Below, piece after piece: positions 10,596-11,788 of a stretch of DNA of 64,000 nucleotides. How positions within the stretch are numbered: position 1 is the first letter of the stretch; the number at the start of each line of letters is the position of its first letter. Under the pieces are notes generated by a model. The model saw only the letters and a list, made by a program, of their open reading frames with translations. It did not search any database and had not been told where the DNA came from. Origin of the DNA: an uncultured candidate division Zixibacteria bacterium (GTDB lineage: Bacteria > Zixibacteria > MSB-5A5 > RBG-16-43-9); NCBI GenBank assembly GCA_963713865.1, contig OY970208.1, forward strand, positions 320,001 to 384,000, given 5' to 3'. Made by a program: the position numbers and the translations under genes.

Positions 10596-10682
10596 AAAAA
10601 AATATCCGTTAATCAATAAATCCGAGTTAACCTCAAAAAAATGGACAGAACGATGTTCTGTCCCTACACGACAAATAAAAAA

Positions 10683-10769
10683 TAGCGGGGGTTGGATTTG
10701 AACCAATTCGCCTTGGCGAAGGTTATGAGCCCGACGAGCTACTCCGCCGCAGGCGGACTCCACCCTGCG
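10683..10769 (-). ncRNA. tRNA-fMet-like copy 3 (87 nt, two hairpin substitutions)
   Basis: CGCAGGGTGGAG[TCCGCCTGCGGCGGA]GTAGCTCGTCGGGCTCATAACC[TTCGCCAAGGCGAA]TTGGTTCAAATCCAACCCCCGCTA. Confidence 0.8.
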
Positions 10770-10998
10770 ACATTTCGTCTATAAATTCCCTACCTTTTCC
10801 AGTTTTCAACCACCTCTCCCTTTTAACAGCTTCTCCTCTGCTGTCGAACTCCTCTGAGTAAATCACCCGCCAGTTACTATCTACCTTTGTAGTTTTACAT
10901 AATCCAAAATTATGCTCCGATAACCTGCGTCCTAAATCGGAAGTATACCCAGTATATTGTTTTCCTTTAGCAGATTGAAGCACATATACTGTAAACAT
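10723..10998 (-). CDS. GIY-YIG nuclease, copy 3
   Basis: VYVLQS...YTGYTSDLGRRLSEHN...EAVKRERWLKTGKGR. Confidence 0.9.
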   Translation of the reverse strand: MFTVYVLQSAKGKQYTGYTSDLGRRLSEHNFGLCKTTKVDSNWRVIYSEEFDSRGEAVKRERWLKTGKGREFIDEMSQGGVRLRRSSSSGS

Positions 10999-11026
10999 AA
11001 GAGGAAATCAGAGGGATAATAAAAAA

Positions 11027-11113
11027 TAGCGGGGGTTGGATTTGAACCAATTCGCCTTGGCGAAGGTTATGAGCCCGACGAGCTACTCCGCCGCAGGCGG
11101 ACTCCACCCTGCG
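11027..11113 (-). ncRNA. tRNA-fMet-like copy 2
   Basis: Identical to 10683-10769. Confidence 0.8.
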
Positions 11114-11342
11114 ACATTTCGTCTATAAATTCCCTACCTTTTCCAGTTTTCAACCACCTCTCCCTTTTAACAGCTTCTCCTCTGCTGTCGAACTCCTCTG
11201 AGTAAATCACCCGCCAGTTACTATCTACCTTTGTAGTTTTACATAATCCAAAATTATGCTCCGATAACCTGCGTCCTAAATCGGAAGTATACCCAGTATA
11301 TTGTTTTCCTTTAGCAGATTGAAGCACATATACTGTAAACAT
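11067..11342 (-). CDS. GIY-YIG nuclease, copy 2
   Basis: Identical to the other copies. Confidence 0.9.
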   Translation of the reverse strand: MFTVYVLQSAKGKQYTGYTSDLGRRLSEHNFGLCKTTKVDSNWRVIYSEEFDSRGEAVKRERWLKTGKGREFIDEMSQGGVRLRRSSSSGS

Positions 11343-11370
11343 AAGAGGAAATCAGAGGGATAATAAAAAA

Positions 11371-11457
11371 TAGCGGGGGTTGGATTTGAACCAATTCGCC
11401 TTGGCGAAGGTTATGAGCCCGACGAGCTACTCCGCCGCAGGCGGACTCCACCCTGCG
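11371..11457 (-). ncRNA. tRNA-fMet-like copy 1
   Basis: Identical to 10683-10769. Confidence 0.8.
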
Positions 11458-11686
11458 ACATTTCGTCTATAAATTCCCTACCTTTTCCAGTTTTCAACCA
11501 CCTCTCCCTTTTAACAGCTTCTCCTCTGCTGTCGAACTCCTCTGAGTAAATCACCCGCCAGTTACTATCTACCTTTGTAGTTTTACATAATCCAAAATTA
11601 TGCTCCGATAACCTGCGTCCTAAATCGGAAGTATACCCAGTATATTGTTTTCCTTTAGCAGATTGAAGCACATATACTGTAAACAT
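11411..11686 (-). CDS. GIY-YIG nuclease, copy 1
   Basis: Identical to the other copies; starts 28 nt after the tRNA 3' end. Confidence 0.9.
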   Translation of the reverse strand: MFTVYVLQSAKGKQYTGYTSDLGRRLSEHNFGLCKTTKVDSNWRVIYSEEFDSRGEAVKRERWLKTGKGREFIDEMSQGGVRLRRSSSSGS

Positions 11687-11714
11687 AAGAGGAAATCAGA
11701 GGGATAATAAAAAA

Positions 11715-11788
11715 TAGCGGGGGTTGGATTTGAACCAACGACCTTCGGGTTATGAGCCCGACGAGCTACCAGCCTGCTCCACCCCGCG
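11715..11788 (-). tRNA. tRNA-Met(CAT), initiator type, CCA not encoded
   Basis: CGCGGGGTGGAGCAGGCTGGTAGCTCGTCGGGCTCATAACCCGAAGGTCGTTGGTTCAAATCCAACCCCCGCTA; C1:U72 mismatch and GGG/CCC anticodon stem. Confidence 0.97.

Follow-up and report, generated by a model that had tools for sequence, protein, structure and literature searches.

GIY-YIG enzymes are known as DNA nucleases. The SsnA protein of Neisseria, as presented in the main text of Chenal et al. 2025 (PMC11893778), is a 94-amino acid (aa) single-domain GIY-YIG protein that cuts single-stranded DNA (ssDNA) beside a hairpin with a TCCCGCG..GCGGGA core. In the same text, the ssnA gene is described as flanked by such hairpins (NTS/SRM), and the likeness of this arrangement to insertion sequences is noted. 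UPF0213-type proteins are listed, in the available text of a 2006 survey (PMC1564403), as a minimal, Slx1-like form of the GIY-YIG domain. Here we describe a locus in which a gene for a nuclease of similar size follows an initiator transfer RNA (tRNA-fMet) gene in three tandem copies, each joined to a duplicate of that tRNA gene with short hairpins in place of native arms. The locus lies in a 64,000-nucleotide (nt) stretch of DNA (hereinafter, the window; positions 320,001 to 384,000 of contig OY970208.1) from an uncultured Zixibacteria bacterium, whose genome is denoted G000. Full-text searches found no literature that describes GIY-YIG genes lodged inside tRNA duplicates with hairpin substitutions; the supplements of the Ssn paper, which might list tRNA neighbors, were outside the scope of these searches.

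The reading that we favor, with slightly better than even confidence, is that the array consists of three recent tandem copies of a chromosomal tRNA-gene cassette that combines an Ssn/Slx1-like nuclease with a hairpin-rewritten tRNA duplicate, is expressed from the tRNA promoter and changes in copy number by recombination.

Organization of the tRNA-fMet locus

All GIY-YIG genes of the array are located on the minus strand of the window. The locus includes the following features:

11818..11847, minus strand: sigma-70-like promoter TTGACT-18-TATATT, 10/12 matches, the best promoter-like site in 9200-12100; putative function
11714..11789, minus strand: intact initiator-type tRNA-Met(CAT) (ARAGORN; Rfam tRNA model, 60.7 bits)
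10674..11705, minus strand: three 344-bp units, 100% identical, each with a spacer, a GIY-YIG open reading frame (ORF) and a tRNA copy (Tandem Repeats Finder and repeat search)
11411..11686, minus strand: GIY-YIG ORF of unit 1, 91 aa, with a domain core of ~80 aa and a tail that reads into the tRNA copy (ORF call and Pfam)
11067..11342, minus strand: GIY-YIG ORF of unit 2, 91 aa (ORF call)
10723..10998, minus strand: GIY-YIG ORF of unit 3, 91 aa (ORF call and Pfam)
11371..11457, minus strand: 87-nt hairpin-substituted tRNA-fMet copy of unit 1
11027..11113, minus strand: 87-nt hairpin-substituted tRNA-fMet copy of unit 2
10683..10769, minus strand: 87-nt hairpin-substituted tRNA-fMet copy of unit 3
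10743..10757 (also at +344 and +688), no strand assigned: hairpin 1, TCCGCC-TGC-GGCGGA, in place of CAGGCTG of the D loop; a member of the CCGCC-N3-GGCGG family
10707..10720 (also at +344 and +688), no strand assigned: hairpin 2, TTCGCC-AA-GGCGAA, in place of CGAAGGTCG (3' strand of the anticodon stem and variable loop)
10643..10663, minus strand: terminator-like hairpin and T run beyond the array end, a copy of the dispersed palindrome GACAGAAC..GTTCTGTC, which resembles repetitive extragenic palindromic (REP) elements

The tRNA-Met(CAT) gene displays the initiator signature, namely, three G-C pairs beside the anticodon loop and an unpaired 1:72 position. This signature is present in one of the three CAT tRNAs that ARAGORN identifies in the genome; given that the other two lack the initiator features, this is the sole initiator-type gene in the ARAGORN set. 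Tandem Repeats Finder reports a period of 344, 3.2 copies and 99% matches over 10674-11769, and the repeat search identifies three copies with a spacing of 344 and 100% identity. Each unit is composed of a 28-nt spacer, the 91-aa ORF and the 87-nt tRNA copy, and the ORF extends into the copy to stop at the TAA of the copy's anticodon loop. Apart from the two hairpins, the copy carries a single G-to-A change in the acceptor 5' strand and retains the anticodon loop, the T arm and the acceptor 3' strand of tRNA-fMet. The 87-nt copies are not recognized as tRNAs by ARAGORN, nor by Rfam at E up to 1, and their minimum-energy RNA folds contain no cloverleaf and are mostly unremarkable in energy (z = -1.18 for G000, -1.10 for the related genome G003 and -2.63 for the third). 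Thus, the copy fails as a functional tRNA gene.

The initial annotation of the window, made from the sequence alone, had described the intact tRNA, the three identical 344-bp units, the 91-aa ORF, the 87-nt copy, both substitutions and the TAA stop, and is accurate on all these counts. It had also remarked on the lack of an integrase; indeed, GIY-YIG is the sole ORF family within the unit, which does not qualify as an integrase-type island. The proposal, made there, that the tRNA promoter drives the units is plausible, given the promoter upstream of the tRNA and the absence of any detected terminator-like site between tRNA-fMet and the end of the array; the site at 11818..11847 likely drives both the tRNA and the array.

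The nuclease

The array protein matches the Pfam GIY-YIG family (PF01541) with a score of 49.4 bits, compared to the cut-off of 22.6 (E = 5.7e-13). An alignment of 14 sequences shows no variation at the catalytic residues Y5, Y15, R25 and E61 and almost none at H29. The AlphaFold model, with a predicted local distance difference test (pLDDT) score of 87.7, contains a beta-beta-alpha-beta-alpha core (strands 2-8 and 14-19, helix 22-30, strand 44-51 and helix 54-64). A fold comparison that starts from this model places UPF0213 (1zg2/1ywl), HIGLE and Slx1 at ranks 1-10, I-TevI at rank 16 (E = 0.55) and UvrC at rank 25, and the sequence matches in PDB are to 1ywl (E = 1.3e-6) and 1zg2 (E = 3.2e-6). 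The ORFs of relatives are 79-98 aa long and comprise a single domain, with no DNA-binding domain found. As modeled, the array protein is a member of the Slx1/UPF0213-like stand-alone branch, not of the I-TevI-like branch. A search of NCBIfam assigns no family to it.

Recurrence at tRNA genes and mode of inheritance

The association with tRNA genes extends far beyond this locus. A tRNA gene on the same strand is found within 300 nt of the nuclease gene at 26 of the 29 loci identified in 40 related genomes, at 16 of 17 loci in named genomes that belong to Bacteroidota, Chloroflexota, Gammaproteobacteria and Patescibacteria (a set that was gathered with a single protein query and samples only fairly close relatives), and at 33 of 37 metagenome loci. 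For comparison, the 300-nt zone around tRNAs accounts for 1.1% of the G000 genome. Hairpin-substituted tRNA copies adjoin the homologs too. The intact tRNA can flank the nuclease gene on either side, upstream or downstream, with the hairpin-bearing copy located opposite to it. By these counts, the combination of a nuclease and an altered tRNA copy is a real, recurrent tRNA-associated module, as initially suggested; a survey of homologs had been put forward as the test of that idea, which stands, the association with both tRNAs and hairpin copies being present.

A maximum-likelihood tree was built for 31 proteins, with second matches within one locus and ORFs shorter than 70 aa excluded. All eight tRNA-specific groups (fMet, Ala-GGC, Ala-CGC, Ala-TGC, Thr-GGT, Ser-GGA, Ser-GCT and Gly-TCC) are well-supported clades, and both orientations, with the tRNA upstream or downstream, are found within single clades. 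The nuclease clades follow tRNA identity across an order, and the Ala-TGC clade mirrors the kinship of its carriers (G006, G001 and G000). Among members of the fMet lineage, the ratio of nonsynonymous to synonymous substitution rates (dN/dS) is 0.06-0.10 where dS exceeds 1.3; judging from these alignments, the nuclease is under strong purifying selection. Homologs are encoded in 20 of 50,697 phage records and in 5 of 72,556 plasmid records, all with less than 46% identity, and the search of viral contigs yields a single, partial match of 12 residues. The presence of the cassette at tRNA-fMet is patchy: G001 lacks the nuclease gene, and G004 and G005 lack both the gene and the copy. The best reading of these patterns appears to be that the cassette is mostly vertically inherited and long-resident, as opposed to invading and decaying. 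The initial notion of a minimal, self-amplifying selfish module fares less well: the clades track the tRNA, purifying selection is strong, and the gene is rare in phage and plasmid records.

The same observations bear on classical homing, in which the nuclease would cut an intact, cassette-free tRNA gene, repair would copy the cassette into the break, and the hairpin-bearing copy would be a resistant target. The GIY-YIG proteins include free-standing homing endonucleases, and SegB, according to the available text of PMC2330249, is encoded within the tRNA cluster of phage T4; the patchiness at tRNA-fMet, the tie of each nuclease clade to one tRNA and the removal of native tRNA arms by the substitutions are also compatible with homing. 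Nevertheless, this scenario seems quite improbable. An intact, presumably cleavable tRNA is found beside every cassette, so that a resistant copy gives no immunity, which weakens the earlier suggestion that the copy is a cleavage-resistant allele. Proteins of 79-98 aa that contain no detected DNA-binding domain and are closer in fold to Slx1/UPF0213 than to I-TevI are not the expected agents of homing. Furthermore, the low dN/dS over saturated dS, together with the kinship-mirroring clades, points to long vertical residence, and the phage and plasmid carriers are few and divergent. Finally, the TCC..GGA theme that the hairpins share across lineages is more in keeping with a binding site than with random changes for escape.

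Concerted evolution and turnover in the tRNA-fMet lineage

Members of the fMet lineage with 63-100% protein identity (G003 and loci L069-L073) are all located behind tRNA-fMet. Both hairpin sites, one in the D loop and one after the anticodon loop, are retained in G001, G003 and L069-L073; members with ~50% identity (L052, L061, L075 and L104) carry hairpins in the D loop, after the anticodon loop or in the T loop. At 30 of the 31 covered positions at which the tRNA-fMet of a relative departs from that of G000, the relative's own copy matches its tRNA. Hence, the copy is kept in step with its own tRNA, by gene conversion or by re-duplication, and the hairpins stay. The hairpin sequence itself is less stable than its site. 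The stems of hairpin 1 are TCCGCC/GGCGGA in G000, G001 and L072, TCCCCGCC/GGCGGGGA in L069 and CCCAG/CTGGG in G003; this hairpin turns over fast, with both arms changing, and in the case of L069 the change is accompanied by zero synonymous differences in the nuclease gene.

The gene content of the cassette varies as well. G001, which belongs to the same genus, has a copy with both hairpins and its own leader, and no nuclease gene. Locus L052 begins inside a preceding unit and L061 contains a second, diverged unit, which indicates that tandem units recur within the fMet lineage. The ORF of G003 stops earlier than that of G000, so that the tail reading into the copy is not a conserved feature.

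Two further tRNA-derived segments are found beyond the array in G000:

10532..10595, minus strand: older, 5'-truncated tRNA-fMet remnant, with the anticodon arm turned into a CCCGCC-AAA-GGCGGG hairpin; abuts the native downstream flank
9297..9465, minus strand: second copy, at 92% identity, of 10564-10732, comprising the tRNA copy's 3' half (anticodon loop onward), the terminator hairpin and the start of the older remnant

The older remnant is downstream in G000 and upstream in L069, and exchange among the shared tRNA 3' ends would yield this difference in module order. A 1.1-kb segment, bracketed by the 169-bp direct repeat (9297-9465 and 10564-10732), contains two small ORFs without an assigned family in addition to the older remnant and the native downstream flank. 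The start of the repeat coincides precisely with the anticodon loop of the hairpin-bearing copy, as opposed to that of the genuine tRNA. The segment has the appearance of an insertion or a duplication for which the tRNA copy was the site. The two small ORFs (9972-10133 and 10180-10338) produce Pfam matches below threshold only, and PADLOC detects no defence family for either of these or for the nuclease. Farther along, on the plus strand (6881-9163), a 760-aa protein with FG-GAP/VCBS-like repeats is encoded by 147-bp tandem DNA repeats.

The tRNA-fMet gene is a recurrent integration site in relatives (L044/L047 of G004, L045/L050 of G005 and L051 of G001). The displaced 3' fragments of tRNA-fMet in these genomes start at the anticodon or the variable loop and are located on other contigs or 5 kb downstream. 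G001, G004, G005 and G000 all have other insertions at this hot spot.

Other cassettes in the genome

Stand-alone GIY-YIG matches occur at eight places in the genome, distributed over six loci, in addition to one match inside a 614-aa frame. Three paralogs outside the array share its plan, i.e., a tRNA, a GIY-YIG gene and an altered copy of the same tRNA. Specifically, the GIY-YIG gene behind tRNA-Gly(TCC) is followed by a copy whose anticodon arm is replaced by TCCA-TC-TGGA; the gene behind tRNA-Ser(GCT), by a copy in which TCCCGCC-GCT-GGCGGGA replaces this arm; and the gene behind tRNA-Ala(TGC), in the ribosomal RNA (rRNA) spacer, by a copy from which the anticodon arm is deleted. At another locus, a GIY-YIG pseudogene precedes a 3' remnant of tRNA-Ser. 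The rRNA spacer (G000:C1:1311671-1312950) encodes tRNA-Ile and a ~220-aa ORF with a methyltransferase-like GxGxG motif, followed by the tRNA-Ala(TGC) cassette; the GIY-YIG part of this cassette is kept in G001 and G006.

Hairpin-bearing tRNA copies without a nuclease gene are present upstream of tRNA-Ser(GGA), tRNA-Val(GAC) and tRNA-Gly(TCC), all of which are tRNAs that carry GIY-YIG homologs elsewhere. Because the Ser(GGA) site of relatives contains the entire cassette, its hairpins occupying the same two loops, the gene-less copies look like relics of gene loss. A missing GTC before the T arm was considered as a mark of every copy, and this fails at the upstream tRNA-Gly copy.

The hairpins of the cassettes share a theme, T(C/T)C...G(A/G)A, are GC-rich and replace one or two arms of a tRNA duplicate that is either partial or full-length. 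The stems are lineage-specific and kept across families: TCCCGAT for Ala-GGC, TCCA for Gly-TCC and TTCGCC for fMet. For example, the Ala(GGC) stem TCCCGAT..ATCGGGA is identical or differs by one change in all nine aligned loci from two families. The tRNA-Asn cassettes of Chloroflexota, with 46-54% protein identity, contain the same fMet-type (G)TCCGCC-N3-GGCGGA hairpin. Hairpin-bearing copies were seen only at tRNAs that have a GIY-YIG homolog here or elsewhere. Integration-type tRNA duplicates in the same data, namely, the 48-nt repeat at tRNA-Pro(GGG) and the 3' fragments of G004 and G001, are free of hairpins. The tRNA-Pro(GGG) locus (G000:C1:1898360-1899010) is a single-gene insertion, in which the tRNA is followed by one ORF (~165 aa) and then by 48 nt that repeat the 3' half of the tRNA perfectly, with neither an integrase nor a hairpin.

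The sixth GIY-YIG locus (window 1535-1729, minus strand) has no tRNA nearby, and its product is 34% identical to the array protein. Its flanks (1300-1950) contain a palindromic repeat of another type (GTCAT...CTGAGC...GAAG), one that is closer to the published SRM layout than are the tRNA-linked hairpins.

This variety of layouts has to be confronted with a possible role of the tRNA copy at the RNA level, for instance, in the form of a processing or stabilizing 3' end of the nuclease mRNA, a cofactor of the enzyme, or a decoy or antitoxin that acts on it. Compatible with such a role, the layout implies co-transcription, with no terminator detected before the array end; the copy retains the T arm, the acceptor 3' strand and, almost unchanged, the acceptor 5' strand; and hairpin stems change on both arms. 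However, the transcribed copy does not adopt a cloverleaf, and its folding energies are unremarkable. In many copies, the acceptor 5' strand or the T arm is missing entirely, and in the copy-upstream configuration the copy is 5' of the gene, so that no single RNA role fits all cases. The ORF tail is not conserved, as noted above for G003, and GIY-YIG enzymes are generally known as DNA nucleases. An RNA-level role is therefore judged very improbable, and the initial suggestion of a tRNA-like RNA that acts as a cofactor or template finds no support.

Dispersed hairpins and points against the proposed reading

The palindromes are not private to the cassettes. Hairpin 1 belongs to a REP-like family, CCGCC-N3-GGCGG, with 116 sites in the genome, 106 of these outside ORFs of 150 aa or more; its commonest form is GTCCCGCC-N3-GGCGGGAT, and other members in the window are located at about 6308, 30841, 30987 and 31295. 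Counted on both strands, 232 occurrences are observed, compared to a mean of 0.5 in 20 dinucleotide-preserving shuffles. Within the same order, the family is represented by 30-487 sites in 32 of the 33 genomes searched, and by 9 sites in G031; among six genomes that are farther removed, it is at background in four or five. A second dispersed palindrome, (GTAGG)GACAGAAC-N3-GTTCTGTC(CCTAC), occurs at about 62 places, including 10643-10663 and 9376-9396 in the window, so that the apparent terminator after the array is a simple copy of it. About 20 of the 62 listed copies carry a CCGCC-type hairpin nested in the loop. This nesting suggests that the small hairpin enters the loops of pre-existing DNA hairpins, including arms of spare tRNA copies.

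Several observations weigh against the reading favored here. Recognition of the hairpins by the nuclease, its specificity for ssDNA and the stimulation of recombination are all proposed by analogy. The CCGCC hairpins are intergenic throughout the genome, and only two of the six GIY-YIG loci have one within 60 nt. Clustering of the dispersed hairpins at tRNAs was considered and dropped, since 8 of the 116 sites are within 300 nt of a tRNA, compared to 4.0% of intergenic space, a mild enrichment. Similarly, the idea that hairpin number tracks nuclease gene number was dropped because no clear relation is seen across 41 relatives; five genomes of the same order without a GIY-YIG match still contain 40-224 hairpins. 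The SRM string of the Ssn paper is not enriched in G000 (4 hits compared to a mean of 6.5 in 20 shuffles), with none at the locus. Eight matches to Y1 transposases (Y1_Tnp, RAYT-like) in the genome are candidates for moving the hairpins. Turning to the array itself, the assembly, a single 2.72-Mb contig, is the sole witness of the three-unit count. Moreover, among the listed contigs of the public run X4 with zero differences, the nuclease contig has a depth of 3.3 compared to 2.2-3.0 for the flanks, which is a weak hint, considering that contig depth in this run is, as the tool warns, no measure of copy number.

Some of these points are what would be expected under a coincidental layering of unrelated elements, i.e., a nuclease gene that uses tRNA promoters, next to dead tRNA copies left at integration hot spots and colonized, like any other dispensable hairpin, by REP-like palindromes that enzymes such as Y1 transposases would mobilize. 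The mostly intergenic distribution of the 116 sites and their nesting in another palindrome, the eight Y1_Tnp matches, the absence of a dose relation between hairpins and GIY-YIG matches in relatives, and the attraction of other insertions to tRNA-fMet in G000 and three relatives are all in line with this possibility, which we nonetheless regard as distinctly unlikely. Integration-type tRNA duplicates in the same data contain no hairpin, and hairpin-bearing copies are confined to tRNAs that have a GIY-YIG homolog here or elsewhere. The hairpin sites are conserved over dS above 1.3 even as the flanking tRNA blocks are homogenized, and the stems are lineage-specific and conserved across families. 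Finally, no Y1_Tnp match was found within 1.6 kb of any hairpin.

Copy number of the unit

Contigs of four public runs leave the window bins 10992-11355 uncovered. Assembled as short contigs, the public runs break at the 33-nt junction that is common to the tRNA and its copies, so that the units are not countable in these data. The metagenome contig L069 carries one unit next to the same flanking efflux gene; its nuclease differs from the array protein at 1 of 80 residues (99% identity), with no synonymous change. Given that such a close relative has a single unit, the triplication is strain-specific at most, attested by the assembly. Close relatives carry 0, 1 and 3 nuclease copies. In run X2, which represents a related strain, a contig joins the native flank to a single nuclease gene. 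On an X2 contig that aligns to window 10537-10706, the T arm and acceptor end of the copy are swapped for another hairpin-bearing 32-nt piece, and the tRNA copy directly abuts the native flank.

The triplication might also be an assembly artefact or a minority variant, with one unit as the true state. The single unit of L069, with the same flanks and a 99% identical protein, the X2 contig and the depth of the X4 nuclease contig, which is not raised (a weak hint), would agree with this possibility; still, we consider it unlikely. A genome assembled into a single 2.72-Mb contig suggests reads long enough to span 1 kb, and short-read contigs collapse repeats of this kind. Both L069 and X2 are structurally unlike G000 and so represent other strains, and tandem units of the same lineage are present in two further assemblies (L052 and L061).

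A possible mechanism and its implications

If the array is indeed a recently amplified tRNA-gene cassette, the following sequence of events can be envisaged. The nuclease gene would have no promoter of its own and would be transcribed by read-through from the tRNA promoter. The hairpins, extruded in ssDNA, could serve as recognition sites of the nuclease, by analogy with NTS/SRM and SsnA. Nicking at the hairpins may then stimulate recombination among the tRNA copies, which would homogenize the tRNA-derived blocks and also yield gains, rearrangements and losses. The transition from one unit to three could have occurred by unequal exchange within the 33-nt identical tRNA 3' end and the adjacent T run. 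The cassette would persist mostly by vertical descent, anchored to an indispensable tRNA gene.

A stronger form of this idea, tentative and on the doubtful side, is that the cassette is a self-maintaining recombination module of an undescribed kind, in which a minimal, structure-specific GIY-YIG nuclease recognizes its own hairpin in a spare copy of an essential tRNA gene, nicks it in ssDNA and thereby drives gene conversion and unequal exchange between the tRNA copies. Such a module would explain together the concerted evolution, the fast hairpin turnover and the spread of hairpins to loops, both those of tRNA arms and those of other palindromes, and the tandem amplification. It would also be an element that is long-lived without an integrase, a transposase or horizontal transfer, welded to an indispensable gene.

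Should the favored reading hold, nucleases of ~80 aa, among the smallest known, would be linked both to tRNA genes and to a defined hairpin in DNA across several phyla, i.e., in the Zixibacteria lineage analyzed here and in Bacteroidota, Chloroflexota, Gammaproteobacteria and Patescibacteria. Ssn-type ssDNA nucleases would acquire a natural context and a testable role beyond Neisseria, and many pseudo-tRNAs and odd tRNA-like annotation calls would be accounted for. Anchoring to an essential tRNA and recombination with it would amount to a new mode of persistence, and the catalog of nuclease-hairpin pairs could be a source of ssDNA tools. The locus appears to be a good test case: it contains the sole initiator tRNA gene, the hairpin has changed while the gene has not, and close relatives differ in copy number.

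Comparison with known systems

The dispersed hairpins invite comparison with REP elements and RAYT transposases: on the order of a hundred short palindromes are intergenic, some are nested, and Y1_Tnp matches are present in the genome. The differences are that no Y1_Tnp is encoded near a hairpin, and that the cassette hairpins sit in tRNA copies beside a GIY-YIG gene. Integrase-borne tRNA islands resemble the cassette in being anchored at a tRNA and in having an insert flanked by direct repeats of tRNA sequence. Unlike these islands, the cassette has no integrase, its insert is about 0.3 kb, and its repeat is nearly a whole tRNA or a 5' part, rewritten by hairpins.

SegB of phages T4 and T6, as far as described in the available text of PMC2330249 and PMC13096335, is similarly encoded by a GIY-YIG gene among tRNA genes and promotes inheritance or segmental amplification of its neighborhood. 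However, this phage enzyme belongs to the I-TevI-like branch and includes a DNA-binding part, and the available text includes neither a dead tRNA copy nor a hairpin substitution. The fold of the array protein is, by contrast, Slx1-like, the gene is chromosomal, and the lineage appears to be old and vertically inherited.

The UPF0213 proteins (1ywl and 1zg2) and Slx1 are the best matches of the array protein in both sequence and fold and likewise represent the minimal GIY-YIG domain; being a structure-specific nuclease, Slx1 provides a precedent that fits a hairpin substrate. The available text of PMC1564403 describes no function, hairpin partner or tRNA linkage for UPF0213, and Slx1 differs from the array protein in that it requires Slx4 and a RING domain, which are absent here.

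The Ssn system, within what the main text of PMC11893778 covers, is alike in layout. There, too, the protein is the nuclease domain alone, the range being about 80-94 aa; the gene adjoins short hairpins, rich in GC, whose core is TCC(C)GC..GC(G)GGA; and hairpins are dispersed in the genome in the hundreds and are specific to the nuclease lineage. That main text contains 0 occurrences of the term tRNA, and its SRM string is not enriched in G000. What sets the present cassette apart is the placement of the hairpin inside a tRNA duplicate, where it replaces an arm, and the joining of the nuclease gene to the tRNA.

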